47,422 bases of DNA, from UHGV virus genome UHGV-0327568; one strand, 5' to 3'. The translations under genes were made by a program, and so were the position numbers. The notes under the pieces were generated by a model. That model worked only from the letters and a program-made list of their open reading frames with translations. It did not search any database and was not told where the DNA came from. The stretch is from a virus. Shown here in pieces: positions 11,984 through 34,862 of the stretch; within the stretch, counting starts at the first letter, position 1; each line of letters begins with the position of its first letter.

Positions 11984-12008
11984 AGACCCCAGCAGGGGTC
12001 TATTTATA
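11984..12008. terminator. Terminator hairpin after terminase (bidirectional)
   Basis: GACCCC-agca-GGGGTC followed by TATTTAT. It also sits at the 3' end of the minus gene 12000-12290. Confidence 0.5.
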
Positions 12009-12290
12009 AAGCCAGCAATGAATCCCCGCGTTGCGCATGGCGGCATAAATCACGTCATTAGACACGACCGCAATCGCCACCCTTTCTGCATCAATCTGCT
12101 GGTGCGAAGCCATGATGTCATCATAGAATACATCGTTAGCATGCAGCCATTCATACGCATGCTTTGCCCTCATGATAAGCACGTCATGCCCGGCAGAGTA
12201 GAGCGACTTAGCCAGCGCAACGTTGCCAGCAATGGCATTACCCTCAGCATCGCGCAGCACGCCATCAAGCTCGAAAATGACACATTTCAT
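12000..12290 (-). CDS. Hypothetical protein with HAD-like N-terminal motif
   Basis: MKCVIFELDGVL resembles HAD motif I (DxDG). The 96-aa protein is too short for a full HAD fold. Confidence 0.45.
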   Translation of the reverse strand: MKCVIFELDGVLRDAEGNAIAGNVALAKSLYSAGHDVLIMRAKHAYEWLHANDVFYDDIMASHQQIDAERVAIAVVSNDVIYAAMRNAGIHCWLYK

Positions 12291-12316
12291 AAGATTTCTC
12301 CGAGAGGTTTCATTTT

Positions 12317-12345
12317 AATCTACGCCATGCTAGAATCTACGTCAA
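12317..12345 (-). promoter_or_regulatory. Leftward sigma70-like promoter TTGACG-17-TAGATT
   Basis: The reverse complement of 12340-12345 is TTGACG and of 12317-12322 is TAGATT. The -35 comes from the conserved element and the -10 from a degenerate second copy (AATCTACGCC). Confidence 0.45.
12334..12345 (+). repeat. Conserved element copy 2: AATCTACGTCAA
   Basis: Exact core; divergent junction between 12290 (-) and 12382 (+). Confidence 0.7.
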
Positions 12346-12381
12346 GGCGCATTGACATAACTACATCACCGGGGGGGCATC

Positions 12382-12621
12382 ATGAAGGCATACTCATCTT
12401 TTTCGTGGGAGCAGAAGGAAAAAATATACTCACTCGCAAGAGCTGGCGTGTCTGATGAAGCACTGTGCGAAAGGTACGATGTTGATGAGGCTATTCTTCT
12501 GCGCATGTATGATGAAGTGCTGTGTGAGTTGCAGCGGCGTCGTGGTTACAGCGGGCTGAAGACGATTAATGATTTCTTTCGGAATGTTGAGTTAAATAAC
12601 GATGAGGGTGGTGATTTATGA
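12382..12621 (+). CDS. Hypothetical protein
   Basis: 79-aa ORF whose ATG directly follows the run of G's. Confidence 0.5.
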   Translation: MKAYSSFSWEQKEKIYSLARAGVSDEALCERYDVDEAILLRMYDEVLCELQRRRGYSGLKTINDFFRNVELNNDEGGDL

Positions 12622-12797
12622 TTATTGAAGGTCATACAAAATTAGATGAGTGCAATCTAATAATTAATGGAAGGCTGTCAGATGAGCATGATTTGATGTT
12701 GTGTCAATTCCACGACACTGTAATCATCGACAAGCACCAGGCCGCGCAGCTTATCGAAGTCCTGCAACGCTGGGTTGATGATGAGGAGATTGAGTGA
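12618..12797 (+). CDS. Small hypothetical protein (59 aa)
   Basis: ATGA overlap with the upstream gene; in-frame stop at 12795-12797. Confidence 0.35.
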   Translation: MIIEGHTKLDECNLIINGRLSDEHDLMLCQFHDTVIIDKHQAAQLIEVLQRWVDDEEIE

Positions 12798-12868
12798 TGA
12801 GCGTTTGCATGCGTCATTTTGCATGCCAAATTAATATTTGTAAATTGACTCCAACCATTTATCAAATT

Positions 12869-13240
12869 TTATGCCTCAACCCAGTCGCCATCTTCGTTTT
12901 TAACGACCTCGACAAGGGTGTCGAACTGGCGTTTGCATTCTGCCGGGTCCTCGTCCCAGGTTGGCATTTCAGCCAGCCAGTTTTTATCCGTGTCGACTGA
13001 ACCGGTAAAGGGGTTCATCAGGAATTTTTCAGTAGTCATTTTGAGAGCCTCGTTAATTTCGCTTATGCGGGAATGAAGCACACACTGCACATCCGCACCT
13101 ATGGTTGATGGCAGTGCATACTTGCCTGTGACCCAGTGCCGGACTGTTCGGTCACTGACGGAAAGTCTTTCCGCCATCTCGGTGACGAAGTGATTCCCGA
13201 ACGCAGCCTTTCCAGCGGCAATAAAAGCTTCGATGTTCAT
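12869..13240 (-). CDS. Putative HTH DNA-binding protein
   Basis: Start MNIEAF at 13240. Segment MAERLSVSDRTVRHWVTGKYALP looks like a helix-turn-helix. Confidence 0.45.
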   Translation of the reverse strand: MNIEAFIAAGKAAFGNHFVTEMAERLSVSDRTVRHWVTGKYALPSTIGADVQCVLHSRISEINEALKMTTEKFLMNPFTGSVDTDKNWLAEMPTWDEDPAECKRQFDTLVEVVKNEDGDWVEA

Positions 13241-13241
13241 A

Positions 13242-13448
13242 TTACGCCTTTGCGAGATTCCAGGTTGATTTAAGGGCGGCAGCAAAGAATTCACAAGCTT
13301 TACGACCCGCATTTTTGGGAAGAGATGCGAAGCCTTTTGCTTCTGCCCATGCTGCGCGCATGATTGCTGCTTTGTCGAATTTGCCGTTGACGATCAGCGT
13401 TGCTTTAGTGGCTGCCTGGTTTTTTTTGAAAGAGTTGAGAATGCGCAT
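13242..13448 (-). CDS. Small hypothetical protein (68 aa)
   Basis: Its stop lies 1 nt from the start of the downstream HTH gene, giving a two-gene leftward unit. Confidence 0.4.
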   Translation of the reverse strand: MRILNSFKKNQAATKATLIVNGKFDKAAIMRAAWAEAKGFASLPKNAGRKACEFFAAALKSTWNLAKA

Positions 13449-13717
13449 TTGGAATCACCTTTGTGATATTGGCTGGGGCTTATCCCCTTGCCTATGTAAG
13501 TAATATACACATTCCGATAATCGGAAGCAAGGTTTTTATGAGATTTATATCGAAAGGTGGCAAAGATATTCGGTCTTGCGTGTCACGAATTGGGGGAGTG
13601 CAGCACGGCTGGATACCAAGTGGTGTCATGTGTGACCTTGCTTCTCATCGCTAACAAGGCCATACATGAAGAGGTTCCTTTTTCGCATCAATATCACGCA
13701 GGCATGACCATGCTATA

Positions 13718-15232: not shown

Positions 15233-16129
15233 ATGAGCCTGACAGACCCACTCGGCGCAGTGGGTCGTGTAAATAAGATGGTGCGCGATGTTGACGCCAG
15301 ATACGTGACGCTAAAATCACAGGCTGCCGACCTGTTTCGCACTATCCCCGTGGCGACTGGCAACGCCGAGGCTGGAAATTATTATTATGATTTCTCTGCC
15401 TATCGCGCATCGACATTCTTTGATGAGCTTCAGCGCATTCTTGATGGTCAGTTGCTGGAAGGCGATGATTTCACGCATGGAAGGTTGTGGGCGTCATCCT
15501 ATGTCAGTGACGCCATGTACGCTGGTACGCAGAAGGCTAACTCTGACCTGAGCGACCTGTCATCGGCATACAAAGACAGCAGGCCGCTTGCTGAAATCCT
15601 GTACTCTCAGCCGTATCTCGACAGGCTTCAGTTAGCGTACACACGCACGTATAACGACTGGGGTGGCCTCTCTGATTACACGCGGCAACAGGTGGCAGAG
15701 GTCATCACTGCTGGCATTGCAAATGGCGATGCTCCGGGAGTGGTTGAGCAAAACATCGTTAACCGCATGGATGTGTCAAGGAGCTATGCGCGGTCAATTG
15801 CTCAGACTGAAATCACCAACACCCTGCGCGAGGCTAACAGACGCGAAGTGAAAGAGGCGCAGGTCACGCTGGGTATGGATACCATCATGCTCTGGCAGTC
15901 GGCGCTGATGAAGACAACCCGCGTTACTCATGCTGCGCGTCACGGGAAATATTACACGCCTGAAGAGATTGATGAGTTCTACAGCGAAGGCGCAAACCGC
16001 CGTAACTGTCACTGCTCGCAGGTTCCAGCGCTGGTGATGGATGGCAAGCCGGTGATACTTGAGAAGACGCAGGAAAGACTCGATAAGCAGCGCGAAGCAT
16101 GGCAGGATACGCACAAGAAAGCCGCCTGA
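15233..16129 (+). CDS. Head morphogenesis protein (Mu F / SPP1 gp7 family)
   Basis: C-terminal region ...THAARHGKYYTPEE...NRRNCHCS matches the Mu F-like domain. Start trimmed from 15068 to ATG 15233 to avoid a 137-nt overlap with portal. The start is uncertain. Confidence 0.65.
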   Translation: MSLTDPLGAVGRVNKMVRDVDARYVTLKSQAADLFRTIPVATGNAEAGNYYYDFSAYRASTFFDELQRILDGQLLEGDDFTHGRLWASSYVSDAMYAGTQKANSDLSDLSSAYKDSRPLAEILYSQPYLDRLQLAYTRTYNDWGGLSDYTRQQVAEVITAGIANGDAPGVVEQNIVNRMDVSRSYARSIAQTEITNTLREANRREVKEAQVTLGMDTIMLWQSALMKTTRVTHAARHGKYYTPEEIDEFYSEGANRRNCHCSQVPALVMDGKPVILEKTQERLDKQREAWQDTHKKAA

Positions 16130-16140
16130 TGGCGGCTTAT
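16117..16140. terminator. Bidirectional terminator hairpin
   Basis: AAGCCGCC-tgat-GGCGGCTT; T-rich on the minus side. Confidence 0.45.
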
Positions 16141-16141
16141 A

Positions 16142-16264
16142 TTAACGCTTTTTAATGAACCCTCCGCAACCGCACTTTGGGCACATCGTATATCGAATTC
16201 CTGGCTTTTCAATCCTGTCTCGGTTGTGGTGTTCGTGCTTGCAGGCCACGCAGATGATAATCAT
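16142..16264 (-). CDS. Zinc-ribbon protein (40 aa)
   Basis: MIIICVACKHEHHNRDRIEKPGIRYTMCPKCGCGGFIKKR with two CxxC pairs. ATGA overlap with the upstream gene. Confidence 0.4.
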   Translation of the reverse strand: MIIICVACKHEHHNRDRIEKPGIRYTMCPKCGCGGFIKKR

Positions 16265-17151
16265 CAATCCTCCAGCTTAACGCCGGGAATTTTACCGGCT
16301 GCGATGGCGTCAAAAATCAAATCTGCTGAATGCCCATTGCTGGCAGATGACCTGCACAACTCAGCAATCGCGATCTTTGCCTCATCGCGCTTCCGCTCCG
16401 CTTCTGAGGGAACGGGGCGAAAATCGCAGGTGCGAGGATGGGCGACAAATTCTCCCGGAGATAGCGCCTCAACAATCACCACTGTATATTCGCTGACATA
16501 TTTAATGATGCCTCGACGCCAGTTGGGTATAGCATCAAGCGTGTGTTTCATAAACTCACACTCACATCCAACCGGCGGCAAGCCTTCGCCATTCCAAACC
16601 GGCGCAGCATCCTGACCTATGCACTCATTCAGGTTGGCTTCTTCATCCGCTTCGGTGATGCCAGCATAAGCATTCCATGCGGCAGCGCGAACCCGGTCTG
16701 CCTCCTGCGGCTGGTGCAGGCGGTAGGCGATGATGTCACCAGGGTCACCCGGCGCATTTACCTGCCAATTCATGGCTCCTGCTGGTTGTCTAGCTGTTAT
16801 GGAACCACATCGCAACTTCACATCAACAACTGCATTTGTGCTAACAGGAGGGTACTCACCACCACCCCACTCAATCCAGCCGTCATTTTTGGCAGCCAGT
16901 GCGGCTTCGTACTGTTCGCGGGTGATGATGGCGATGGCGTAGTCACTTGCCAAAACATCAGCGGTGAAACAATCAATTCTAGAACCATCAAGAAACCACC
17001 GATTAAAACTAGCCTCAAATTTAGCAACGCTTGGCTGGCATTTTGCCGGCATGATTTCTCTGTCGCGGTCCTGCGTGATGCAATTGGCATGCTCCGGCCA
17101 TGACCAGCCGTTTTCAATGGTTTCTTCAACCAAAATATCAATCAGCTTCAT
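16264..17151 (-). CDS. Hypothetical protein (295 aa) with internal W..GGGE/GEG..PPV repeat
   Basis: Long ORF with coherent codon usage. No family recognised. Confidence 0.55.
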   Translation of the reverse strand: MKLIDILVEETIENGWSWPEHANCITQDRDREIMPAKCQPSVAKFEASFNRWFLDGSRIDCFTADVLASDYAIAIITREQYEAALAAKNDGWIEWGGGEYPPVSTNAVVDVKLRCGSITARQPAGAMNWQVNAPGDPGDIIAYRLHQPQEADRVRAAAWNAYAGITEADEEANLNECIGQDAAPVWNGEGLPPVGCECEFMKHTLDAIPNWRRGIIKYVSEYTVVIVEALSPGEFVAHPRTCDFRPVPSEAERKRDEAKIAIAELCRSSASNGHSADLIFDAIAAGKIPGVKLED

Positions 17152-17282
17152 TTCCTCTCTCCGTTATAAATGCTTTTCAGTTCGCCCATCACGACAGACC
17201 ACGCCGCATGCTCATCCATGCCGCGCATCACTAATTTAACGTAGCGATTGCGGGCCTTAAACATCAGGCGAGGGCACATCAT
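17148..17282 (-). CDS. Small hypothetical protein (44 aa)
   Basis: MMCPRLMFKARNRYVKLVMRGMDEHAAW... Overlaps both neighbours by ATGA, so it is translationally coupled. Confidence 0.35.
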   Translation of the reverse strand: MMCPRLMFKARNRYVKLVMRGMDEHAAWSVVMGELKSIYNGERK

Positions 17283-17569
17283 TTGTCACCCATCGTTGAC
17301 AGGCAGACCTCGCGAGAGATTGCGGCCACTTCTTTCGGCGTCTTATCTGTCATTTTGTATGCCCCATCAACGATAGCCTTGCTGAGTTGGTTAAATTCAG
17401 CGCTATACTGGCCTCCAGAAGAAACCATCAGCGCGATCTGCTTTGATACGCCAGCATCACGGGCTTCTGCCGCCGCTTCACCGAACTCACCAACTGCATT
17501 GCAAAACTCGCCAGCCGACGCACCAAATGAAGCCATTGCGAATACTGCTGCTGCGATTAATTTTTTCAT
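17279..17569 (-). CDS. Secreted small protein (signal peptide, 2 Cys)
   Basis: MKKLIAAAVFAMASFGASA/GE is a signal peptidase I-type signal. It is the first gene of the leftward cassette. Confidence 0.55.
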   Translation of the reverse strand: MKKLIAAAVFAMASFGASAGEFCNAVGEFGEAAAEARDAGVSKQIALMVSSGGQYSAEFNQLSKAIVDGAYKMTDKTPKEVAAISREVCLSTMGDK

Positions 17570-17614
17570 CTTGAATCCCCTTTGTTTGTGTAACTACATC
17601 ATCGCTTACGATTC

Positions 17615-17626
17615 AATCTACGTCAA
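17615..17626 (+). repeat. Conserved element copy 3: AATCTACGTCAA
   Basis: Within TTCAATCTACGTCAAGAC; divergent junction 17569 (-) / 17668 (+). Confidence 0.7.
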
Positions 17627-17634
17627 GACTATTG

Positions 17635-17643
17635 TGATAAAAT
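17635..17643 (+). promoter_or_regulatory. Extended -10 (TGATAAAAT) for the lysis cassette
   Basis: TGaTAAAAT lies 8 nt after the conserved element. The same arrangement recurs at 29623-29631. There is no good -35. Confidence 0.35.
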
Positions 17644-17667
17644 AATCTGCATCACCGGAGGTAACAA

Positions 17668-18805: not shown

Positions 18806-18832
18806 AAAAGCCCCGTAAGGGGCTTTGTTTTA
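18805..18832. terminator. Bidirectional rho-independent terminator
   Basis: AAAGCCCC-gtaa-GGGGCTTT flanked by A-run and T-run. Confidence 0.65.
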
Positions 18833-18851: not shown

Positions 18852-19067
18852 TCACGCATAAAGCGCCTCCATTTTGTACCCAAACATGGTCGCATTCTGA
18901 TGCTCAACACTACCAGCAAACGCCAGATAGCGGCGACCACGGTTGCTGGTGATGATGTAGGCTGCTGGTTCTCCAAGCCTCGGGACATGATAATCGCGCC
19001 GGGCAGGTTCGTGTAACTCCACCATGTCGATTTCAATGCGTGGCACGGGGTCTTGTATTGGCATCAC
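18852..19067 (-). CDS. Hypothetical protein
   Basis: 71-aa ORF. ATGA overlap with the upstream gene. Confidence 0.4.
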   Translation of the reverse strand: MMPIQDPVPRIEIDMVELHEPARRDYHVPRLGEPAAYIITSNRGRRYLAFAGSVEHQNATMFGYKMEALYA

Positions 19068-19537
19068 TTCACCTCCCCATTCAGTTCATTAACAATTAAT
19101 GTTGCATAGCCAGCGATGTCTTTCCAGCTATCGTCGTATGTCGGGTCGCCATTCAGGATGCGACCAATTTTATGCTGAATCATGTCGAGCGCTTCCTTCT
19201 GGCTCGCCGTCAGGTTATTCCAGCCCTCCGCGTCATGCATAACTCGTTTCAGAGATCGCATGATTTCTGCGCCGTCTTTGAATTTGCCATAACGGCTGCC
19301 GCGCTCGGTGATGAGGGCTTCTGTTGAGATGATGCGCCAATTCAAGTCACCATCAGTTACTGGCTCACGATGGGCGATAACAATATCGCCAGCCTTTTCG
19401 ATATCCTTATCTCGCCCTGCATAATCCGCGCTGAGGTAGTGGATTTTGCCACTGGTTGCTGACTTCACAGCAAGAACGGCATCTTCATGACCATTAAAAT
19501 AATCAGCACTTCCTTTCAGGTATTTGTATTTCATCAC
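19064..19537 (-). CDS. Putative MazG-like nucleotide pyrophosphohydrolase-domain protein
   Basis: C-terminal ERGSRYGKF...LTASQKEALDMIQHKIGRILNGDPTYDDSWKDIAGYATL resembles MazG-like NTP-PPase modules in phages. Assignment is from memory. Confidence 0.4.
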   Translation of the reverse strand: MMKYKYLKGSADYFNGHEDAVLAVKSATSGKIHYLSADYAGRDKDIEKAGDIVIAHREPVTDGDLNWRIISTEALITERGSRYGKFKDGAEIMRSLKRVMHDAEGWNNLTASQKEALDMIQHKIGRILNGDPTYDDSWKDIAGYATLIVNELNGEVK

Positions 19538-19734
19538 TCCACCCTAAACGTAACTTTGTTTTTCTCATCCACGCTGAAGTGCTCACGCACAAACGCATAC
19601 ATTTCTTCAGCACTCCATTCACGCATTGCTACATAGCAGTGCGCGTAATATCTGACATCTCGCAGGCTTAACGGCTGGCGCTTAGCGATAATATCAGTCA
19701 GTACTTCCAGTGGTTCTTTGCGTTGTCTCGCCAT
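19534..19734 (-). CDS. Hypothetical protein
   Basis: 66 aa; first gene of the leftward cassette. Confidence 0.45.
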   Translation of the reverse strand: MARQRKEPLEVLTDIIAKRQPLSLRDVRYYAHCYVAMREWSAEEMYAFVREHFSVDEKNKVTFRVE

Positions 19735-19763
19735 TGTCGCTCTCCTGTGAAATCATCTTGACT

Positions 19764-19775
19764 AATCTACGTCAA
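19764..19775 (+). repeat. Conserved element copy 4: AATCTACGTCAA, embedded in a 9-bp inverted repeat
   Basis: TTGACTAAT(19758-19766)-ctacgtca-ATTAGTCAA(19775-19783) flanks the element. Confidence 0.7.
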
Positions 19776-19829
19776 TTAGTCAATACTAGGTGTTGTAGAT
19801 TATAACATCTTAATGCGAGTGATGTGGAT

Positions 19830-20345: not shown

Positions 20346-20557
20346 AAAAGTGGCAGGAGGTGACAGAAGTTCATAAGCGCGATTGCAGGGAGACTCTGCA
20401 AATGCTTAATGTGCCAGAGTCAATCATTAAATCTATCGAGCAGCGCATTGATCTGGCTGCTATGGAGGCCGCCCATGAAGCCGAGGAAGCGCAAATGTTG
20501 TCATGGATGGACAGAACTCTACCGGGCGTTTTACATCGTGGTAAGACTACCGATTGA
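20342..20557 (+). CDS. Hypothetical protein
   Basis: 71 aa; ATGA overlap with the HNH gene. Confidence 0.45.
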   Translation: MKKWQEVTEVHKRDCRETLQMLNVPESIIKSIEQRIDLAAMEAAHEAEEAQMLSWMDRTLPGVLHRGKTTD

Positions 20558-20640
20558 AGATGATGACGGGTATCTGCACAACCATAGTCAGGTGCTCAAA
20601 TATTATGGCGTTCACTACAAAGTGCTGATGGAGAGAAAAA

Positions 20641-20832
20641 ATGAATACTGATCAGGTGTACGAAAAAGAGTTGTTGAACAAGCTGGAGGAACTCGACCGT
20701 ACTCGCGCCTGGGTTGAAAGCGAATTGCGCGAAGTTCGCAACCGCATGCAGCGGCAGGTTAACCGCGAAATTATCGAATGGCGCGAAGGGCGCCCGCATT
20801 TCAGCAATATTGGTGAATGGGTGGCGAAATGA
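20641..20832 (+). CDS. Hypothetical protein
   Basis: 63 aa; GGAGAG RBS. Confidence 0.5.
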   Translation: MNTDQVYEKELLNKLEELDRTRAWVESELREVRNRMQRQVNREIIEWREGRPHFSNIGEWVAK

Positions 20833-21065
20833 AACCAATGATGAATGATGACGGGCTGCTTGAGTGCGCCCACTGCGGATCAATGGATGTCAGAGTTGAA
20901 ACTGATGATGGGTGGCGATACATTGAATGCGGCGAATGTGAAATGCGAACGGCAGAATATCGCAATGACGAATCCATGCGCAGGAGATGGAATACCAGAA
21001 ATGGCCACCTCTATACCGCTGACGACTACAAACAGGATGCAATGGAGCGCGCAAATGGACTTTAA
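20829..21065 (+). CDS. Lar-family restriction-alleviation-like zinc-finger protein
   Basis: LLECAHCGS...WRYIECGECEMRTAEY...RRRWNTR matches the Lar family pattern C.HCG...W.V.C..C. ATGA coupling to the upstream gene. Confidence 0.5.
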   Translation: MKPMMNDDGLLECAHCGSMDVRVETDDGWRYIECGECEMRTAEYRNDESMRRRWNTRNGHLYTADDYKQDAMERANGL

Positions 21066-25568: not shown

Positions 25569-25576
25569 GGGTTATC

Positions 25577-26401: not shown

Positions 26402-26428
26402 AAAAGCCCCGACAGGGGCTTTGTTTAC
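26402..26428. terminator. Bidirectional rho-independent terminator
   Basis: AAAGCCCC-gaca-GGGGCTTT. Confidence 0.65.
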
Positions 26429-26679
26429 TTATGGTCGCGAAGTTGAATGAGATTATCAATCAGCCGCTGGATTGCGGCATTATCTTTAAATGCGATGTAA
26501 ATTTCAGACTCATCAGTATCATTAGTTTTATCGCCAGGAATGCCGCGATTTATGGTATTCGCAAAAGCTATTAACTTTTCTCCATTGCAATAGCCAAATT
26601 TAATGCCAACGTAACCATCGCCAAGACGGGCAACTTTTGAGCCATCTTTCTGAGTAAAAACACCATTCTTTTTCATCAC
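26425..26679 (-). CDS. Hypothetical protein
   Basis: 84 aa; last gene of the leftward cassette. Confidence 0.45.
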   Translation of the reverse strand: MMKKNGVFTQKDGSKVARLGDGYVGIKFGYCNGEKLIAFANTINRGIPGDKTNDTDESEIYIAFKDNAAIQRLIDNLIQLRDHK

Positions 26680-27215
26680 TAAATCCTCATTGGCATAACG
26701 ATAACTTTTGCAGTCTCGCCAGTAGGCGCACTGATGTTTGCGACGGCGGCGCTGGTGTTGCCATTCAACTCAAATAGCACCGCTTCAAATTTCGGGTTAA
26801 ACAACTTCGCCAGCTTCTCAACATCTTCCAGGTATTTGGCATTAAAGCCAATCTGTTCCGCTGGTGCGGTCTGCTTAGGAATGACGCGATCAATATCAGG
26901 GAATCGGCCATTAATCTCAGAGCAGATACCTGCGCCTACCATGATTTCATGCTCGTCATGGTAAGTAACAATACCTGTTTTGGTGTCCAGTAGCGCATGC
27001 GCATAACGCTTAGTTGGCGACTTGCTTACCGATACGATGACGTTACTTTTTATCTTGTTTTCGTGCTTACTGGCAATCATGGCGCGATGACCGTCAGTTG
27101 ACGCAATGCGACCATCAGGCATGAAGCAGATTCCGTTCAGGTAGTAGCGCACATCGTTGCGCGCCTGAAATATTAATGCTGATTCAAGTAATAGTTTGTT
27201 GATTTTTAGTTTCAT
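26679..27215 (-). CDS. Truncated DNA polymerase III beta sliding-clamp (DnaN) homolog
   Basis: 178 aa. NDVRYYLNGICF...ASTDGHRAMIA matches DnaN QDVRYYLNG...ATDGHRLAV. INGRFPDIDRVIPK matches DnaN LVDGRFPDYRRVLPK. C-terminal AKVIVMPMRI matches the DnaN C-terminus AAYVVMPMRL. Covers domain II and a shortened domain III only. Confidence 0.6.
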   Translation of the reverse strand: MKLKINKLLLESALIFQARNDVRYYLNGICFMPDGRIASTDGHRAMIASKHENKIKSNVIVSVSKSPTKRYAHALLDTKTGIVTYHDEHEIMVGAGICSEINGRFPDIDRVIPKQTAPAEQIGFNAKYLEDVEKLAKLFNPKFEAVLFELNGNTSAAVANISAPTGETAKVIVMPMRI

Positions 27216-27388
27216 CACTTCACCTTTATCATGTGTTGTTTTGCAACCTTCAGGCATTCATCGAAAATCTTGCCATTCTTTTCACTCTGGTTGCTCCTGT
27301 AGTGGGTAATTGCGGCCTCTATAGCCGCGTTGTCGATGCCTGGCAGTTTTTCGCGCAGGTTTTTCTCTATGAATTGCTCGGGGTTCAT
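27215..27388 (-). CDS. Small hypothetical protein (57 aa)
   Basis: MNPEQFIEKNLREKLPGIDNAAIEAAITHY... TGATG overlap with the clamp-like gene and RBS GAGGTCAG. Confidence 0.35.
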   Translation of the reverse strand: MNPEQFIEKNLREKLPGIDNAAIEAAITHYRSNQSEKNGKIFDECLKVAKQHMIKVK

Positions 27389-28320
27389 TAAACTGACCTC
27401 ATGAATGCTTTAATGAATTCCGCTGCGACTTGCGGGACGATGGCATTGCCATAACCGCGCAGTCGTCCCACCCTGGCGGGAATCCCATTAGCCAGCGGGA
27501 ATGTGCCGGGCTCAACTGGCCGGAACTTTCCATCCCGGCATCCGAGCCAGTCAGCATCTGACCAGAATCCGTGATGCGGATTGGTTGCGTTATCGCTGCA
27601 AAATCCTGCAGACGCTGTTGTATCTTGCTCCCGTCCTTCCGATACATAGTTAGTGCGTTTTCTGGTGCAGCAGCCCTGTCGTTGCTGTTCGCAGTTGGGC
27701 TGGGCAATGCGGCCAGCTTCGCCTGTCCGGGTAGCTTCAGGCATATCTTTCTGTCCTTCCCGCTGTAGCAATGCGTGCTGCCAGTTGTGTCGTTCACTAT
27801 TGGTGTCGCCCAGTTGCATCGCGCCGAAGAAAAGTCTGTCGCGTTTGTGTGGTGCACCGACGCTGCACGCTGGCAATACTGCCGACCCGCAGGCGTAGCC
27901 TTTGTCTTCCAGGTTAAGGAATACAAAATCGAGCCAGTGCTTTCCAATTGCTGCCGCAACCTGCTCTCCAAACAGCAATTGAGGCTTGCACTCTCTGATG
28001 AGCCTGAGAAATGCTGGGGCAAGGTGCCGCTCGTCGTCAAATCCGAGAGACTTACCGGCAACGCTAAACGGCTGGCAAGGTGGTGATCCTGTCCAGAGCT
28101 GAGTGCTTGCTGGTATTCCAGCCAACTGGAGTGCAAGGGGCCACCCTCCGATTCCGGCAAAGAAGTGACACTGTGTAAATCCTTCCAGGTCTGAAGGGGT
28201 GACTTCGGTGATTGATCGTTCATCGACATATCCGTAAGGAATTAGTTTATTGTTAATTAACTCTCGCAGCCACGCCGCTGCACTTGCGTCCCATTCGTTG
28301 TAGTAGCTGGCTGTCATCAC
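27388..28320 (-). CDS. DNA (cytosine-5)-methyltransferase
   Basis: Motif I FFAGIGG, motif IV SPPCQPFS, ENV-like FGEQV, motif VIII HKRDRLFF and motif X GNAIVPQVAAEF. A long Q/R/C-rich variable region lies between motifs VIII and X. Confidence 0.85.
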   Translation of the reverse strand: MMTASYYNEWDASAAAWLRELINNKLIPYGYVDERSITEVTPSDLEGFTQCHFFAGIGGWPLALQLAGIPASTQLWTGSPPCQPFSVAGKSLGFDDERHLAPAFLRLIRECKPQLLFGEQVAAAIGKHWLDFVFLNLEDKGYACGSAVLPACSVGAPHKRDRLFFGAMQLGDTNSERHNWQHALLQREGQKDMPEATRTGEAGRIAQPNCEQQRQGCCTRKRTNYVSEGREQDTTASAGFCSDNATNPHHGFWSDADWLGCRDGKFRPVEPGTFPLANGIPARVGRLRGYGNAIVPQVAAEFIKAFMRSV

Positions 28321-29132
28321 AGCTTCTCCAGAATAGCCAGAACTTCACTCAACTCAGCGGAAGGAAGGCGCAAAAATTCTTCTGTCTCCTGTGCCACATG
28401 ACCCTCAGCGACAACCATATGGTCTGCTTCTTTCAGCAACTGAATCAGGCGGTCAATCGGCTTAACTTTTTTGGCCTTGAGCGTTTTAGCCGTCACCTTA
28501 TCTTTGCCCTGCGCTTTCGCTTCCTCAACGGCGGCATCAATAACGTTAACGGCATCATCGCCATGCTCACGTGCGACCGCAACGGCGTTGGCATAGCTGA
28601 TTTGGCCTGCATTGATACGCTGCTTGATGGCATCAGGTACATCACCAAGTGACAGGTGCATTTGCACATCAGACACAGAGCGCCCGACCTTCTTGGCGAT
28701 TTCTTCATTCGTCCACCCGAACCCTTTGAGGCGCACATAAGCCTTTGCACGCTCAAGCGGGTCGAGTTGCTTGCCCTGACTTGAAGACACCATGAAGGCG
28801 ATTTTATCCGCCTCATCGCCGGTGAAGTCTTTGCACTCAATTCGCGCAATTGGCACGCCGCGCTCAATGGCACGCAGTGCTCCAAGGTAACGATGCTGGC
28901 CGTCAAGAATCTTGATGCGCTTTCCGTCGGCATCAGGAATAACAGTTAACGCCGGGATTGGCTGTCCTGATTCCCAACACTGCGCGAAGTATTCAACGTG
29001 CTGCTCATCGGCTTCGCGGATGTTGTACCCCGGCTCAAGGTAAAGCTGGTCGACAGGGACCTGATAACCTTTGTTGACCACGATTCCGCCGCGAGTTTCT
29101 TTGTCTGAGTAAATTTTTCCGAGAGATGTCAT
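28317..29132 (-). CDS. ParB-like nuclease-domain protein
   Basis: KILDGQHRYLGALRA is the ParB/Srx-type DGxHR motif. Start chosen at ATG 29132 (GAGGGA RBS). The ORF track extends to 29168. Confidence 0.65.
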   Translation of the reverse strand: MTSLGKIYSDKETRGGIVVNKGYQVPVDQLYLEPGYNIREADEQHVEYFAQCWESGQPIPALTVIPDADGKRIKILDGQHRYLGALRAIERGVPIARIECKDFTGDEADKIAFMVSSSQGKQLDPLERAKAYVRLKGFGWTNEEIAKKVGRSVSDVQMHLSLGDVPDAIKQRINAGQISYANAVAVAREHGDDAVNVIDAAVEEAKAQGKDKVTAKTLKAKKVKPIDRLIQLLKEADHMVVAEGHVAQETEEFLRLPSAELSEVLAILEKL

Positions 29133-29141
29133 CTTTCCCTC

Positions 29142-29256
29142 ACTTTGATAAACAGATTGCACTGGCAATGGCGAATCCGATAACGATTAACGCCAGCTTG
29201 ATTTTGAACTTATCCCACGCCTTCAGGTCTTCTTTTCGTATTTCGTGGCGGATCAT
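29142..29256 (-). CDS. Small membrane protein (38 aa)
   Basis: MIRHEIRKEDLKAWDKFKIKLALIVIGFAIASAICLSK with one TMD. ATGA overlap with the upstream gene. Confidence 0.35.
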
Positions 29257-29564
29257 TGGGGTTCTCCGAGTGCTTTTGCGATTGCGGCATAGGCCTTGCT
29301 CAAGGCAGTGGCATTCCTTTTTGTTGGCGTAGTGAAGACTACAAGCATCTCCAGAGCCTCCAGCAATTCCGGCGCAGCGGCCATCATTCGTTGGTTGGCA
29401 ACTTGAACCTCAACTTCAGGGTCAAACTCAACCCAGCCGACAGGAATAATCACTCCATAAGACTGGTCGTCATCTGTTGATTTTGGCCCTATTGCCCTGC
29501 TGTTATCTCCAAACCACGGCCCCGGCGTACCTTTGAATTCATTCATCCTCATCACCTCTAACAT
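29253..29564 (-). CDS. Hypothetical protein
   Basis: 103 aa; first gene of the leftward cassette. Confidence 0.45.
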   Translation of the reverse strand: MLEVMRMNEFKGTPGPWFGDNSRAIGPKSTDDDQSYGVIIPVGWVEFDPEVEVQVANQRMMAAAPELLEALEMLVVFTTPTKRNATALSKAYAAIAKALGEPQ

Positions 29565-29586
29565 TTATTGTTGTTTCTACGTCATC

Positions 29587-29615
29587 ACTATAGCGACACC
29601 CTCAATCTACGTCAA
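29587..29615 (-). promoter_or_regulatory. Leftward sigma70 promoter TTGACG-17-TATAGT
   Basis: Reverse complement of 29610-29615 is TTGACG, spacer 17, reverse complement of 29587-29592 is TATAGT. The hexamers are identical to the rightward promoter at 6804-6832. Confidence 0.55.
29604..29615 (+). repeat. Conserved element copy 5: AATCTACGTCAA (partial copy TCTACGTCA at 29575-29583)
   Basis: Within CTCAATCTACGTCAACAC; divergent junction 29564 (-) / 29777 (+). Confidence 0.7.
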
Positions 29616-29622
29616 CACTTTA

Positions 29623-29631
29623 TGATAAAAT
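29623..29631 (+). promoter_or_regulatory. Extended -10 (TGATAAAAT)
   Basis: Same nonamer and same spacing from the conserved element as at 17635-17643. Confidence 0.35.
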
Positions 29632-29776
29632 TAAACCAACAACACTCAACCCGCGCTGTTCCGTGCTGAAAAACGTAAGGCGGCGAAATTGGATATAGCA
29701 ATCGGCGTTATCGTCATGGCGCTTTCGCTGGTTCAGGTGTACAGATGCTGGAAGTTCATCATTCGGAGAATAATTA

Positions 29777-31697: not shown

Positions 31698-31774
31698 TGG
31701 TTCCCGCGACAGGATTCGAACCTGTAATCATCCGATTATGAGTCGGGTGCTTTAACCAGTTAAGCTAAACGGGA
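31698..31774 (-). tRNA. tRNA-Met/Ile2 (anticodon CAT), CCA encoded
   Basis: Manual cloverleaf fold. Acceptor TCCCGTT/CGCGGGA with one mismatch. D-stem GCTT/AAGC. Anticodon loop CTCATAA. T-arm ACAGG-TTCGAAT-CCTGT. Ends A-CCA. Confidence 0.8.
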
Positions 31775-31777
31775 ATT

Positions 31778-31854
31778 TGGTGCACCATACTGGATTCGAA
31801 CCAGTTACCGATTGCTTAGAAGGCAATTGCTCTATCCTGATGAGCTAATGGTGC
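31778..31854 (-). tRNA. tRNA-Arg (anticodon TCT), CCA encoded
   Basis: Acceptor GCACCAT/ATGGTGC. D-stem GCTC/GAGC. Anticodon stem ATTGC/GCAAT with loop CTTCTAA. T-arm ACTGG-TTCGAAT-CCAGT. Ends A-CCA. Lies 3 nt from the tRNA-Met gene. Confidence 0.9.
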
Positions 31855-31856
31855 GT

Positions 31857-31995
31857 TGTGTTGTGGTGAGTGGAGTCGAACCACCTTCCATCAGTGCGCT
31901 GCTGATTGGGTTACGCGCATCCTGCGGTTACTTATCCGGAATCTTCACCGCAAAACTATTCCCTAGCTCGCCGTTGAGCTTCACCACAACGATAA
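31857..31995 (-). other. tRNA-like remnant / candidate third tRNA (no clean cloverleaf)
   Basis: Minus-strand GGTGG-TTCGACT-CCACT is a canonical T-arm 8 nt from tRNA-Arg. The matching acceptor TGTGGTG...CACCACA lies 127 nt apart, or 91 nt apart with one mismatch. No CCA. Confidence 0.3.
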
Positions 31996-32723
31996 ACCAA
32001 CTCACTTAACCACATGAATCGTACAACTCAAAGGTGGTAAATTGATTTACCTGTTGTGTGCCGGGATTCCACCGGCTCCCATCTGTTTTTTAAGACACTC
32101 ATATATCGTCTGGTCTTGTTGTGGTGGCCGGTGCTGTTCTCCGGCGTTGCCTACCCTTAGTGAATCGGTTTTTCCGCTCGAGTCCGGAAAGGCATGGGAA
32201 ACCGCCCACCCTAAACCATCGCATCAGCCTGCGCATTCACCACAACGGAAAGAGCACTCATTGCATCGACCAAACAGAATCGTCTTTTCGATTATGACTC
32301 TACTTTAACGGTTGCTCTGCTGCGCTAACCCAATGCTCTTACCTGTTGTGTGCCCATTATTAATCACACCGGGCCAGTGCGCCGAATTCATTGACAAGGA
32401 GTCGGAAGACCTTGCTGGTGTTTAGCCGTTAGGCTACTGCCAGATACATTTCTTCGTTTGCATTTATCTTTGTGGTCAGTTTCTAAAAACCCGCAAAGTC
32501 GCCACGAAAACTATCGGAAAGAGCGCTTTAAGCCTTACCACATCTACTTTTGCGCATAAGTCGTCACCTGTGCGGGGATGTCCCCTGAAGCTACTTAACA
32601 GCGCTCTTACCTGATAGTTGCTGGCGTCTCAAATTAACAGTAAATCCGAATGCCACCTGTCAATCTTCCTGCATTCTGCGACCAGCAAGTTAAATCTACA
32701 CCACCAATCAAAAGCTGTCAACA

Positions 32724-33522: not shown

Positions 33523-33548
33523 AAAAACCCCCGAAAGGGGGTTTATTC
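33522..33548. terminator. Bidirectional rho-independent terminator
   Basis: AAACCCCC-gaaa-GGGGGTTT. Confidence 0.65.
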
Positions 33549-33743
33549 TGTTCTGACATATCTAAAAAACAACTTATCTTGAGATATCATCTTTAATTTG
33601 CCATCTCGCTCCATTCTTCTTGCTATCCTCCGCATGTTACCATGCGAAGATTTAAATTTATGGACATAAATCCAGCCGTAATATTCAATCATTTCGTTCA
33701 CATGGCTTTCTTTTTTTATTTTATGGATGGCTCTCATTATCAC
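33543..33743 (-). CDS. Hypothetical protein
   Basis: 66 aa, basic. Confidence 0.4.
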   Translation of the reverse strand: MIMRAIHKIKKESHVNEMIEYYGWIYVHKFKSSHGNMRRIARRMERDGKLKMISQDKLFFRYVRTE

Positions 33744-33910
33744 GCCTTCCTCGTCTTATTTTTAATCGCCCACAAAATCAGATTAGCCATAAACTCAGAT
33801 CGCTTTAAGTGAATGGCAATCGCGTAATTAATGTCAATGCACTGTACGGCATAGGCGGATATGACATCAGCATCTGTTTGGTCAACCACCATTGGTTTTC
33901 TCCCGCAACA

Positions 33911-34162
33911 TCATACACACTCATCAAGCTGACGGCGCAACATGCATAGCGCACCGCGTGGCATTGCCTGGCGACTCACACCGTCGAAAATCTTCCGGTT
34001 GAGGTAATTGGTCACTCGCGGCCTGATAGCCTGCCAGCACGCCTTAATGCTGCCATTTACCGGGCGGCGCTCGAGCATGGCGAACTTTGCAGATAGTTCC
34101 AGCGTCACCAGTGCATCAAGGTATTGCTCGCAGGCATAGCGATTTTCGTTATCCATCATCAT
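33911..34162 (-). CDS. Hypothetical protein
   Basis: 83 aa; ATGA overlap with the upstream HNH gene. Confidence 0.4.
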   Translation of the reverse strand: MMMDNENRYACEQYLDALVTLELSAKFAMLERRPVNGSIKACWQAIRPRVTNYLNRKIFDGVSRQAMPRGALCMLRRQLDECV

Positions 34163-34644
34163 TTACCATGGTTCTCATGAAAATCATACTTAACCTCCGC
34201 CTTTCTCCTTGCTTCAGCGGCCATATTTAAGTCAGAAAACAATCCAAGATGAATCTTTACGCCATCAACTTTTATGTTTGAGGCCCATTTTTTATGTTGT
34301 TTATCCCATGAAACACCAGTAACACCTGATTTGTTTGTCACCCTGAACTTCATGTTGTGATTATTCTCTTTTGGAGTGACAAGCCTGAGGTTATCTATCT
34401 TATCGTTTGTTTTTTTGTGGTCTATATGATCAATCTGCATTCCGTCAGGAATTTTCCCATTATGCATTTCCCAGATGATGCGATGAACAAGATACTTGAC
34501 GCCATAGATTCCAACAATCTTATATCCATTGCCTCCTACCGCCTTCACCTCGCTTCCGATTTTCACTCTGTTTGAGGTTCTTATCTTCCAGTAAATAGCC
34601 CCATCGCAATAATAAAAAATATCTGACCAATCATTTATCTTCAT
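34159..34644 (-). CDS. HNH homing endonuclease with AP2 domain
   Basis: IDHIDHKKTNDKIDNLR plus KSGVTGVSWDKQHKKWASNIKVDGVKIHLGLFSDLNMAAEA. Third paralog of this type. Confidence 0.8.
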   Translation of the reverse strand: MKINDWSDIFYYCDGAIYWKIRTSNRVKIGSEVKAVGGNGYKIVGIYGVKYLVHRIIWEMHNGKIPDGMQIDHIDHKKTNDKIDNLRLVTPKENNHNMKFRVTNKSGVTGVSWDKQHKKWASNIKVDGVKIHLGLFSDLNMAAEARRKAEVKYDFHENHGK

Positions 34645-34765
34645 CGAATGTCACCCCTACCATTGCAAGTAATTTTTTCGCCATCAACTCGGCCTCATCA
34701 TAGGTAAACCCGCAATCAACGTACAGGTCAATGTAAAATCTCAAATCAGCATCAGTCTCGTTCAT
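34631..34765 (-). CDS. Small hypothetical protein (44 aa)
   Basis: MNETDADLRFYIDLYVDCGFTYDEAELMAKKLL... First gene of the leftward cassette. Overlaps the HNH start. Confidence 0.3.
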   Translation of the reverse strand: MNETDADLRFYIDLYVDCGFTYDEAELMAKKLLAMVGVTFDEDK

Positions 34766-34785
34766 ATGTCAAACCCTTAATCACC

Positions 34786-34797
34786 TTATGCTTTCAA
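34786..34797 (+). repeat. Conserved element copy 6: AATCTACGTCAG (partial copy TTACGTCA at 34826-34833)
   Basis: Within TTCAATCTACGTCAGTC; divergent junction 34765 (-) / 34863 (+). Confidence 0.65.
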
Positions 34798-34815
34798 TCT
34801 ACGTCAGTCTTGCGT

Positions 34816-34824
34816 CTCCTGTCA
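34816..34824 (+). promoter_or_regulatory. Extended -10 (TGgTATAAT) upstream of the tail assembly genes
   Basis: AATGGTATAAT lies 39 nt before ATG 34863. Confidence 0.35.
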
Positions 34825-34862
34825 ATGGTATAATTACGTCATTATGAAAACAGGATTTAGAC

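Follow-up and report, generated by a model that had tools for sequence, protein, structure and literature searches.

The DNA analysed here (hereinafter, the window) is a stretch of 47,422 nt from a phage which appears to be virulent, a 47-kb siphovirus. On the reading that we consider, taken as a whole, to be probable, it contains the genes for packaging, head, lysis and tail of a virulent Roufvirus-like Klebsiella siphophage, with rightward operons split by leftward units. Five blocks of minus-strand ORFs lie where a preliminary description of this DNA had placed them (12000-12290, 16142-17569, 18852-19734, 26425-29564 and 33543-34765). They are inserted, as it had stated, between terminase and portal, head morphogenesis and lysis, lysis and capsid, capsid and connector, and major tail and tape-measure chaperone genes, respectively; annotated relatives possess an identical layout. 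PHROG or Pfam matches support most of the blocks, and the GC/AT skew is negative across the blocks. All five units are real, but two more had been missed, a tRNA unit (31698-32721) and an ORF pair (12869-13448). The opinion that such an architecture is not standard in described maps is half true: the layout can be seen in all annotations deposited for the group, whereas a literature search found no paper describing the motif considered below.

Unit 1 encodes a 96-aa protein which matches a PHROG family labelled polynucleotide kinase and occurs in 32/32 Roufvirus-like loci. Unit 2 comprises ORFs of 41, 295, 44 and 96 aa; the promoter-proximal 96-aa protein bears a signal peptide (MKKLIAAAVFAMASFGASA), and the two proximal genes are fixed (34/34), the distal ones being variable. 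Unit 3 comprises ORFs of 71, 157 and 66 aa, and both of its promoter-proximal genes are found in 33/33 relatives. The 157-aa product (19064-19537), formerly taken for a pyrophosphohydrolase, matches solely DUF6378, with no match in PDB. Unit 4 encodes an 84-aa protein, a half-size beta-clamp homologue (26679-27257), a 57-aa protein, a C5 cytosine methylase (27388-28320), a ParB/KorB-HTH protein (28317-29168), and proteins of 38 and 103 aa, with 33 gene-content configurations among 34 loci. Unit 5 harbors ORFs of 66, 50, 83 (DUF7740), 161 (HNH_3 endonuclease, 34159-34644) and 44 aa; the proximal 44-aa gene is kept by 38/38 relatives, 14/38 have the HNH gene, and 6/38 the distal 66-aa gene. This HNH gene does belong to a leftward unit, as had been proposed for the homing endonucleases of the region, but the other one (19824/19830-20345), adjoining unit 3, is on the plus strand; it is inserted from 19809 on and only in some relatives. 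Likewise, the accessory nature ascribed to the content of the units applies to the distal cargo, which varies, but not to the promoter-proximal genes, fixed in all Roufvirus-like relatives (e.g., the ParB/KorB-HTH protein in 34/34).

The sixth unit, on the minus strand, carries tRNA-Arg (31778-31854) and tRNA-Met (31698-31774) behind a predicted promoter TTGACA-17-TAGATT (32721-32693) containing the motif variant TGGTGTAGATT; about 840 nt between this promoter and tRNA-Arg are free of ORFs. The ORF pair at 12869-13448, also leftward, encodes proteins of 147 aa (weak HTH, MerR/NinH matches) and 68 aa. The motif is absent from this pair, which is sporadic and common only to ZX4, BUCT541 and one other phage.

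A GC-rich hairpin is present at the end of 5/5 units, but the canonical bidirectional terminator that had been attributed to each of them is found in 3/5 only: T3 (18807-18826), T4 (26403-26422) and T5 (33525-33544; AAACCCCC GAAA GGGGGTTT), each built of an A-tract, a stem and a T-tract. A hairpin in the position of T5 is kept in 38/38 relatives. The T1 hairpin (AGACCCC/GGGGTCT, 11984-12001), between the terminase stop and the end of unit 1, has a U tract which is weak on the plus strand and absent on the minus strand; many relatives possess in its position a different canonical terminator along with one additional variable gene. The T2 hairpin (AAGCCGCC/GGCGGCTT, 16119-16138) overlaps the stop codon of the head-morphogenesis gene and has weak U tracts; the homology to pIS4-A and KpV2811 ends at 16138. 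Neither T1 nor T2 was reported by the terminator scan.

As had been described, each of the five blocks is headed by a divergent region with an exact copy of AATCTACGTCA (TGACGTAGATT in its minus-strand form), at 12334, 17615, 19764, 29604 and 34796. Timing (early vs. late), promoter assignments and terminator function are deduced from sequence throughout the group, and the promoters listed below are predicted ones. In R1 (12291-12381), with motif copies at 12317-12327 and 12334-12344 and a weaker one at 12358-12368, the leftward promoter TTGACG-17-TAGATT would consist of two motif copies 17 nt apart. Neither a convincing rightward promoter nor a usable rightward -10 was found in R1; since T1 is, in addition, a poor terminator, rightward readthrough of unit 1 may occur. 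R2 (17570-17667) contains copies at 17591-17601, 17615-17625 and 17644-17654, a leftward promoter TTGACG-17-GATGAT and a rightward extended -10 (TGATAAAAT, 17635-17643), directly followed by an antisense motif copy and the endolysin ribosome-binding site. R3 (19735-19829) has the motif on the minus strand at 19764-19774 and, inverted on the plus strand, a further copy (TGTTGTAGATT, 19791-19801); no good leftward -10 at canonical spacing was found there. In R4 (29565-29776), where the motif lies at 29604-29614 and a second copy (TGACGTAGAA, 29574-29584) covers +1, the leftward promoter combines TTGACG (29610-29615) and TATAGT (29587-29592) over a 17-nt spacer, the rightward extended -10 is again TGATAAAAT (29623-29631), and in 34/34 loci the motif and the next gene are separated by a constant 163 nt. 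In R5 (34766-34862), the leftward TTGACA (34820-34825) is followed after 18 nt by TAGATT inside the motif (34796-34806), and the rightward extended -10 is TGGTATAAT (34826-34834); the spacer is hypervariable among 38 loci, in all of which TTGACA, TGACGTAGATTG and TGGTATAAT are unchanged.

AATCTACGTCA has 10 matches in the window at no more than one mismatch, against 0.57 expected, and 0/100 shuffles reach this number. The motif, TGAYGTAGATT, provides the -35 (TTGACG) at 6805, 12344, 17625 and 29614, with -10-like hexamers 17 nt away, and the -10 (TAGATT) in R5 and the tRNA unit, with TTGACA 17-18 nt upstream. The window, BS5 and Skate-like loci all have additional copies, in both orientations, in spacers or over +1. 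The motif is asymmetric, it is not an attC-like inverted repeat, and the distance from copy to copy varies from about 17 to 37 nt.

Considered initially as a feature of the cassettes, the element is found at promoters of the early, helicase and recombination operons as well. Outside the stretch originally described, it is part of a rightward early promoter on the plus strand (TTGACGTAGATT...TATAGT, 6804-6832). On the minus strand, it occurs at 3364-3374 in the spacer of a leftward promoter (TTGACT-17-TAATTT) heading the HNH and helicase operon (729-3240), and at 308-318 upstream of a leftward gene running off the window start. If the window is the whole circularly permuted genome, the latter copy is probably at the promoter of the exonuclease/AAA_24/SSB recombination operon (45173-47418); its orthologue in phage BS5, at 28307, precedes the BS5 recombination genes. 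In this Skatevirus, the motif is found at the orthologous promoters of all five slots as well as of the early, helicase and recombination operons. The "conserved element" is probably the phage's own promoter-associated motif, belonging to sigma-70-type promoters.

In about 95 related loci, the ends of the slots are constant and their interiors hypervariable, with 173 cargo ORF families, some of which are spurious antisense ORFs. In slot 5 (between the major tail and tape-measure genes), all 38 relatives possess the same hairpin at the start and TGACGTAGATT always 57 nt from the next gene, the interior length ranging from 769 to 1496 nt; the capsid-connector and tRNA slots similarly combine constant ends with a variable interior. 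The point at which sequence classes part is the base following the motif, the first ATG, or a position just past the hairpin. In the tRNA slot (169-1316 nt in relatives), at least seven classes part directly after TAGATT, and ungapped similarity is lost at the first base past it in 291/666 locus pairs, such pairs being phylogenetically non-independent. In slot 5, 4-5 classes are joined after TGACGTAGATTG, and in about one half of the pairs the break is 25-28 nt from the left end, just past the 20-nt hairpin. In inner slot 1 of relatives, at least eight unrelated genes occupy the space from a constant terminator to a constant module composed of a promoter and a covarying 5'UTR stem-loop. For many junctions, the position is the ATG or the interior of a gene and not the motif.

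Slots can also be empty: in some Skatevirus-like genomes, the terminase-portal slot (75 nt) or the head-lysis slot (63 nt) lacks genes. The empty and occupied states of the Skate-like slot 1 differ by a terminator-gene-promoter unit ending beside a motif copy, with only GATAA/GATTAA microhomology at the junction. The plus-strand small-gene blocks beside the divergent promoters are equally variable (358-2537 nt from the gene at 12382 to the portal). A genome-reduced clone of Skatevirus seszw lacks several genes of slots 2, 3, 4 and 5; 65% of the seszw genes are reportedly removable. The slots and the motif are present in Roufvirus-like and Skatevirus genomes alike, and the slots, syntenic across Roufvirus, Skatevirus and more distant relatives, are ancestral and not recent insertions. 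The comparison to morons made at the outset is borne out in that the units behave as independently bounded slots with content turnover.

These observations can be accommodated by a model in which each unit would be transcribed from a sigma-70-type promoter, situated in a short divergent control region, to a hairpin common to the converging rightward operon. The leftward units would represent islands of early-class genes placed antisense within the late region. During evolution of the slots, the promoter-proximal gene would stay fixed while distal cargo is swapped, gained or lost; junctions would fall at the transcription start or first ATG as well as at the motif and the hairpin. Homology arms for the recombination genes of the phage (SSB, AAA_24/Sak4-like, PDDEXK exonuclease) may be provided by the conserved regulatory ends; alternatively or additionally, only the exchanges keeping the regulatory ends may survive. 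Selection alone can make junctions coincide with regulatory ends.

Whether the motif is, in addition, an operator for a DNA-binding protein co-regulating this class of promoters, probably by shutting them off, seems to us about evenly balanced. Such a role is suggested by the 5 nt beyond the hexamers: in 37-38 loci, conservation covers the two hexamers as well as 5 nt immediately upstream of TAGATT, and 12-13 spacer positions, adjacent bases included, are free to vary. The universally conserved ParB/KorB-HTH protein and a winged-helix protein are the candidates for binding it. In regulons of ParB-family/KorB-type proteins or of small phage repressors, one short DNA motif is found at many promoters of a small replicon. 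The recurrence of the motif at many promoters and the conserved ParB/KorB-HTH protein of slot 4 are reminiscent of this situation and offer a lead. At the same time, KorB and parS sites are palindromes, whereas the window motif is asymmetric with variable copy spacing, a ParA partner is absent, and the binding by the ParB/KorB-HTH protein is putative. The asymmetry and variable spacing would be unusual for a dimeric repressor.

The most serious alternative, though a rather unlikely one, is that the element is simply the strong sigma-70 promoter sequence preferred by this lineage, with no regulator, and that junctions cluster at promoters and terminators only because recombinants, whether illegitimate or homologous, with damaged ends or genes are inviable. 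It is in line with the finding that all motif copies (0 or 1 mismatch) except that at 25380 are in a promoter-like context, contributing a TTGACG or TAGATT hexamer, and that none of the early small ORFs was recognized as a regulator gene. It would also fit the slot-specific cargo (3/173 families in more than one slot), the plasticity of the plus-strand blocks lacking a bracketing motif, and the sporadic motif-free unit at 12869-13448. This explanation is at odds, however, with the invariance of TGAYG before TAGATT, which fits neither a usable -35 nor an extended -10 while the nearby spacer varies. It does not account for the copies in the spacer (3374) or antisense over +1, which supply no hexamer, nor for up to five copies within about 130 nt in one Skate-like R1 region.

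It is doubtful that AATCTACGTCA on the plus strand is a site for a late activator which would replace the missing rightward -35 and could occlude the leftward -35, making an early-to-late switch of one site. R2, R4 and R5 do have a rightward extended -10 (TGATAAAAT twice, TGGTATAAT once) without a -35; the motif covers about -35 to -23 of the rightward promoters in R2 and R4, and the rightward -10 is invariant across 38 loci. Nevertheless, the distance from the motif to this -10 is inconstant (10-11 nt in R2 and R4, 21 nt in R5, different in R3), R1 is devoid of a usable one, the motif also accompanies promoters without a divergent partner (3374, 318 and the tRNA unit), and extended -10 promoters do not need an activator.

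A dedicated insertion or recombination system capturing cassettes, as initially proposed, with the element and hairpin as integron-like or PeSL mini-circle-like recombination sites, has a precedent in PeSLs (PMC2839356, PMC4122927) and is favored by the meeting of unrelated classes at an identical nucleotide after TAGATT in the tRNA slot and after TGACGTAGATTG in slot 5, the eight or more genes of inner slot 1 in relatives, and the unit beside a motif copy distinguishing empty from occupied Skate-like slots. It is nevertheless very improbable, given that neither the annotation of the slots and their vicinity in six related records nor the window ORFs scanned include an integrase, transposase or other site-specific recombinase, that ordinary core operons are also headed by the motif, that cargo is nearly never seen in a second slot, that many junctions are at the ATG or within genes, and that microhomology alone marks the empty/occupied junction.

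The closest known systems are the promoter-early stem-loops (PeSLs) and hyperplastic regions of T4-like myoviruses (Arbiol, Comeau and Krisch 2010, PMC2839356; Comeau et al. 2014, PMC4122927). In both cases, repeated sigma-70-type early-promoter motifs and GC-rich stem-loop terminators surround small, mostly non-essential genes between core modules, and the insertion, deletion and replacement junctions of close relatives are in or beside regulatory sequences (-10 to ATG, or the stem-loop). The constant promoter-plus-stem-loop module in inner slot 1 of relatives is a further similarity, and the general phage recombination system is invoked in both because no dedicated recombinase is known. In contrast to PeSLs, the promoter and hairpin of the window are at opposite ends of multi-gene units instead of forming one composite element, the units run antisense to the late operons around them, and the promoter-proximal gene is fixed in each slot. 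There are a few fixed, syntenic, cross-genus slots vs. dense arrays of one-ORF cassettes, and the motif TGAYGTAGATT, of a 47-kb siphovirus, is distinct and can serve as a -35 or a -10.

Morons, known from lambdoid and other phages (for the definition, see "The moron comes of age", PMC3594210; for the contrast between moron accretion and PeSLs, PMC2839356), are likewise transcribed independently, each from a promoter of its own and up to its own terminator, between conserved late genes, and are present in some relatives and absent from others, with accessory cargo (here methylase, superinfection-immunity-like and HNH genes). Still, classical morons are sporadic, usually single-gene, expressed from prophages of temperate phages and devoid of conserved flanks, whereas the slots of the window are ancestral, regular and multi-gene, share the motif with the core early operons and keep a fixed gene each, in an apparently virulent phage.

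Overall, the leftward units probably represent early-class islands antisense in the late region, i.e., hyperplastic slots with conserved regulatory ends. In T4 and similar virulent phages, early genes transcribed by the host RNA polymerase from sigma-70 promoters are opposite to, and interspersed among, late virion genes, and read-through is limited by terminators. The arrangement in the window is more regular and on a much smaller scale; no late-transcription factor was identified, and the temporal class is a predicted one. The orientation of the islands and their terminators would shield the late genes from early transcription and the islands from late transcription. Such an organization would be a siphoviral variant of morons and PeSLs rather than new machinery.

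The best-supported reading of the leftward units is that they would be islands of early-class genes, which share a promoter motif and lie antisense within the late region; their early timing is suggested by sequence features. Such islands would be closed by hairpins common to converging operons and, over evolutionary time, would act as hyperplastic slots with conserved regulatory ends. In the literature, the motif and the slot architecture were found nowhere described, and transcriptome data for the group were likewise not found.

Minus-strand ORFs occupy all five blocks delimited in the preliminary description, i.e., 12000-12290, 16142-17569, 18852-19734, 26425-29564, and 33543-34765 (units or slots 1-5), and GC and AT skew are both negative over the same stretches. 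The deposited annotations of ZX4, pIS4-A, ZCKp20p, KpV2811, KP591P1, and Skatevirus BS5 show the same five leftward blocks in the same positions. The five cassettes are real but the count was incomplete, since two more leftward units had been overlooked. The sixth (31698-32721, minus strand; the tRNA slot) is headed by a promoter-like TTGACA-17-TAGATT with the -10 hexamer within the variant TGGTGTAGATT, and carries tRNA-Arg and tRNA-Met at its end. The seventh, an ORF pair at 12869-13448 (minus strand), gives weak HTH matches, lacks the motif, and is common only to ZX4, BUCT541, and one other phage. Most unit products match phage protein families, e.g., C5 cytosine methylase, ParB/KorB-HTH, HNH_3 endonuclease, DUF6378, and DUF7740, and one falls in a PHROG family labelled polynucleotide kinase; no support was obtained for the label "pyrophosphohydrolase" given to 19064-19537. 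For the 192-aa product of 26679-27257 (minus strand), the similarity is to beta sliding clamps of bacteria over their residues ~136-295 (PDB 1mmi and others, E about 1e-10); the protein is a half-size clamp homologue, and the relatives' label "RusA-like Holliday junction resolvase" appears to be wrong.

The leader of the tRNA unit (31855-32690, minus strand, ~840 nt; most notably ~32220-32510) is devoid of ORFs and contains a recurring "cacaacaggtaagagc"-type spacer. At 80-94% identity, part of it recurs in ~157-kb phages of the Ackermannviridae (Klebsiella KP6, Salmonella Det7, E. coli CBA120), in stretches that lack annotation, and Rfam returned for this leader only sub-threshold tmRNA-like noise. 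It may represent degenerate tRNA genes or a non-coding RNA common to unrelated phages.

The Klebsiella phages ZX4 and BUCT541 share ~94% identity with the 47.4-kb window, the alignment covering 85% of the stretch used as query. Identities of 90-95% were obtained for KpV2811, for Aeromonas phage pIS4-A (genus Roufvirus), and for many further Klebsiella siphophages. The next relatives are Salmonella and E. coli Skatevirus phages, at about 75-79% identity. A subfamily "Roufvirinae" was proposed for this cluster in a 2025 paper, with phage Skate as the outgroup. The comparison set was drawn from IMG/VR and comprised 38 neighbourhoods of the major tail gene and 57 of the portal gene. An exact 14-mer scan of IMG/VR returned relatives mixed with chance matches in unrelated contigs and was uninformative on the taxonomic range of the motif.

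The conserved element claimed for the divergent regions heading units 1-5 (R1-R5) was borne out: AATCTACGTCA (plus strand) is present, without mismatch, in all five of them and occurs once more, inverted, at 6805. With at most one mismatch allowed, the window holds 10 sites vs. 0.57 expected. On the transcribed (minus) strand the motif reads TGAYGTAGATT. It places TTGACG in the -35 position at 6805, 12344, 17625, and 29614, where a -10-like hexamer follows 17 nt downstream, and TAGATT in the -10 position in R5 and the tRNA unit, where TTGACA lies 18 and 17 nt upstream, respectively. When copies are paired 17 nt apart (R1 and extra promoters of ZX4, KP591P1, and BS5), one gives the -35 and the other the -10 hexamer. 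The assignment of TAGATT in R5 as a -10 hexamer served by the upstream TTGACA is supported by per-position conservation across 38 loci: TTGACA, the entire TGACGTAGATTG, and the opposite-strand TGGTATAAT are invariant, with 13 freely variable spacer bases intervening. Rightward promoters of the extended -10 type (TGATAAAAT in two cases, TGGTATAAT in one) stand back to back with the leftward promoters in R2, R4, and R5.

The motif is also found at the head of the early rightward operon (6805) and of the HNH and helicase operon (3374), and the copy at 318 apparently heads the recombination operon as well; the orthologous promoters of the early, helicase, and recombination operons of BS5 carry it too. 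Since core operons are headed by it, the motif represents a promoter-class motif of the phage and not a cassette marker. In a clade with just 63-67% portal identity, a related ATCTACT motif occupies the equivalent promoter. A one-mismatch copy, TGACGAAGATT (25370-25380, minus strand), falls within the small ORF 25341-25535 of the plus strand, and most relatives retain it; either a relic promoter or chance could explain it.

The hairpins bore out the preliminary description less fully. A hairpin was regarded as a bidirectional terminator if its GC-rich stem lay between an upstream A tract and a downstream T tract, giving a U run on both strands. The claim that all five units end at a strong terminator of this kind stands for 18807-18826, 26403-26422, and 33525-33544 but not for 11984-12001, where the U tract is weak on the plus strand and absent on the minus strand, or for 16119-16138, a weak case with weak tails; the terminator scan of the window reported neither of the latter two. 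Hairpins of the bidirectional type also occur between 25299 and 26422 (25303-25322, 25539-25560, and 26403-26422), where the major capsid gene is succeeded by two plus-strand genes, 25341-25535 and 25565-26395, each with its own hairpin behind it. The presence of the two genes differs among relatives, so that hairpins also bound variable plus-strand cargo. Elsewhere, the AT-rich stretch 6520-6700, with short tandem repeats (e.g., "ataataatagtagtagtagt"), separates the leftward replication genes from the early rightward promoter and has a hairpin on either side (6495-6515 and 6726-6748); this stretch may be a replication origin or another cis-acting site. On the minus strand, the latter hairpin with its T run (6748-6726) follows a weak leftward promoter-like site at a distance of ~40 nt.

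Among relatives, the slot ends are constant and the interiors are not. In slot 5, measured from the major tail gene to the next gene, all 38 loci have a hairpin 3-7 nt past the stop codon and keep a distance of precisely 57 nt between the motif and the following gene, with interiors of 769-1496 nt. In slot 4, between the capsid and connector genes, the corresponding distance is precisely 163 nt in all 34 loci (interiors of 2275-4989 nt). In the tRNA slot, no hairpin was found at the left end, the motif variant and the major tail gene are 64 nt apart in 35 of 37 loci, and the interior spans 169-1316 nt. Aligned views reveal at least seven unrelated sequence classes splitting at the first base past TAGATT in the tRNA slot and four to five classes splitting directly past TGACGTAGATTG in slot 5; slot 4 has a constant 5'UTR and ribosome-binding site, with seven or more different first genes starting at the ATG. 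An ungapped pairwise scan, confounded by 1-nt offsets and the hypervariable spacer and used only jointly with the aligned views, placed the break at the first base past TAGATT in 291 of 666 tRNA-slot pairs and 25-28 nt from the left end, just beyond the hairpin, in about half of the slot 5 pairs. Besides these junctions at the motif, the ATG, and the hairpin, others between relatives fall at internal gene boundaries.

Promoter-proximal genes are fixed in Roufvirus-like genomes (12000-12290 in 32/32, 17279-17569 in 34/34, 19064-19734 in 33/33, the ParB-like gene in 34/34, and 34631-34765 in 38/38), and terminator-proximal genes are variable (6/38, 9/34, 11/34); the HNH gene occurs in 14/38 loci and the methylase in 21/34. 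Slot 4 alone displays 33 gene-content configurations in 34 loci. Small-gene blocks on the plus strand downstream of the divergent promoters are equally plastic (358-2537 nt from the gene at 12382 to the portal gene), and single plus-strand genes between hairpins come after the capsid gene.

Slot 1 adjoins the large terminase gene (9445-11979, plus strand), whose 844-aa product owes its length to an intein-like insert; residues ~92-375, before the Terminase_3 domains, comprise a Hint domain and a homing-endonuclease domain of the LAGLIDADG type. The long gene is shared with pIS4-A and KpV2811; ZCKp20p, KP591P1, and BS5 encode a TerL of ~475 aa. Directly upstream of its start codon, at 9377-9440 (plus strand), lies a match to the Rfam family int-alpA RNA (RF02996; 42.6 bits vs. 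a gathering threshold of 35.8). Within slot 1, many Roufvirus-like genomes possess an extra inner slot, ordered as canonical terminator, single variable gene, and constant module of ~90 nt. Eight or more unrelated genes (57-231 aa) take the variable position, and the module combines a ribosome-binding site with a covarying stem-loop in the 5'UTR and a double-motif promoter. In loci L172-L227 of the relatives (terminase stop to PNK-like gene), the promoter is TTGACGTGGATT-N6-TGATGTAGATT, and compensatory changes are apparent in the stem-loop gcggcaccattgccgc. In the window, the inner slot is empty (~11980-12000). In Skate-like genomes, slot 1 is either empty (75 nt) or holds a terminator, a gene, and a promoter (336 nt), the empty/occupied junction showing GATAA/GATTAA microhomology beside a motif copy; slot 2 shrinks to as little as 63 nt.

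A dedicated insertion or recombination system, proposed in the preliminary description, is not supported by these data: no slot integrase or transposase is annotated in the six related records, nor any integrase or repressor; the Pfam/PHROGs-scanned subset of window ORFs contained no dedicated integrase or recombinase, and clustering the minus-strand ORFs of six slots gave 173 families (some surely spurious), of which just three occur in more than one slot. Instead of attC-like imperfect inverted repeats, the element is an asymmetric 11-mer coinciding with promoter hexamers, and the slot hairpins are ordinary terminator-like stems. In ZCKp20p only (locus L003), a leftward TnpB-family RNA-guided endonuclease gene (20512-21642) is inserted between two tail-completion genes; it is an independent mobile element outside the conserved slots. 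The phage has genes for an SSB, a Sak4-like AAA_24 protein, and a PDDEXK exonuclease, which could recombine short conserved flanks. Overall, the observation in the preliminary description was confirmed in part, as its interpretation was supported in part.

The closest described systems are morons (PMC3594210) and the hyperplastic regions with promoter-early stem-loops (PeSLs) of T4-like phages (PMC2839356, PMC4122927). Morons carry their own promoter and terminator; the five units are headed by promoter-like motif sites and end at hairpins, three predicted to be canonical terminators and two with poor U tracts. Distal cargo comes and goes among relatives, and some Skate-like genomes have nothing in slots 1 and 2. 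However, all five slots, with their fixed proximal gene, are present in every Roufvirus-like genome examined, so the slots themselves are not insertions, and the leftward units share only in part the sporadic insertion of morons.

The likeness to PeSLs extends to a repeated sigma-70 early-promoter-like motif (TTGACG-17-TATAGT/TAGATT, TTGACA-17/18-TAGATT), to indel and replacement junctions within the elements (base past the motif, ATG, just past the hairpin), and to hyperplastic regions, set between conserved modules, whose small genes are largely dispensable. Consistent with this last feature are the 173 families, the slot 4 configurations, and Skatevirus seszw, for which a genome-reduction study reported 65% of genes removable (PMC9825161); judged by locus-tag numbering, clone 290L (36.5 kb) lacks genes of slots 2, 3, 4, and 5 and keeps the ParB-like gene. 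By contrast, the composite of promoter and stem-loop is absent from the window, where the hairpins are 0.3-3.1 kb away at the far unit end; in the group, such a composite occurs only in the inner slot 1 of relatives, which is the most PeSL-like feature found. Movement of cargo between slots is rare, with three of 173 families present in more than one.

TGAYG, the five bases upstream of TAGATT, is conserved yet fits neither the -35 nor the extended -10 position. A standard extended -10 was rejected (TG at -17/-16 relative to TAGATT instead of -15/-14), as was TGACG of R5 as the -35 of a second downstream promoter (the sequence 17 nt on is a poor -10 and varies between cargo classes). One copy lies within the spacer of TTGACT-17-TAATTT at 3374; others cover +1 directly past the -10 hexamer, either in sense orientation (29574-29584) or antisense (the R2 rightward promoter and BS5 and Skate-like promoters), and none of these contributes a hexamer. 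A tentative and rather doubtful extension is that TGAYGTAGATT is the early-regulon operator of a phage regulator, e.g., the universally conserved ParB/KorB-HTH protein, and with the fixed hairpins delimits six or seven natural "expression slots" with conserved ends that actively channel homologous recombination. A search for a regulator among early small ORFs returned DUF families only, and we know of no host regulator site (FNR, CRP, DnaA, MetJ, NarL, EvgA, and others) with a convincing likeness to the motif. The conserved ends of the gene islands may promote recombination or may merely survive it.

If the operator and expression-slot reading is true, the Roufvirus/Skatevirus group possesses a PeSL-like gene-swapping mode that has sampled well over 100 cargo families. 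Promoter- and terminator-bounded modular shuffling, documented in the large myoviruses of the T4 type, would thereby extend to small virulent siphoviruses that infect Klebsiella, Salmonella, and E. coli and are under development for therapy. With ~95 close genomes, exact constant ends, and hypervariable interiors, the group is a good natural data set for the old question of whether conserved linker sequences drive phage mosaicism or whether recombination at random, with later selection, produces it. To engineers, the slots would be places evidently tolerating and, as far as sequence can tell, expressing foreign genes. Functions in anti-defence and host takeover are probably held in store by their cargo (methylase, HNH, immunity-like proteins, a beta-clamp fragment, and many unknowns), and the motif provides a testable handle on early-gene regulation in the group.
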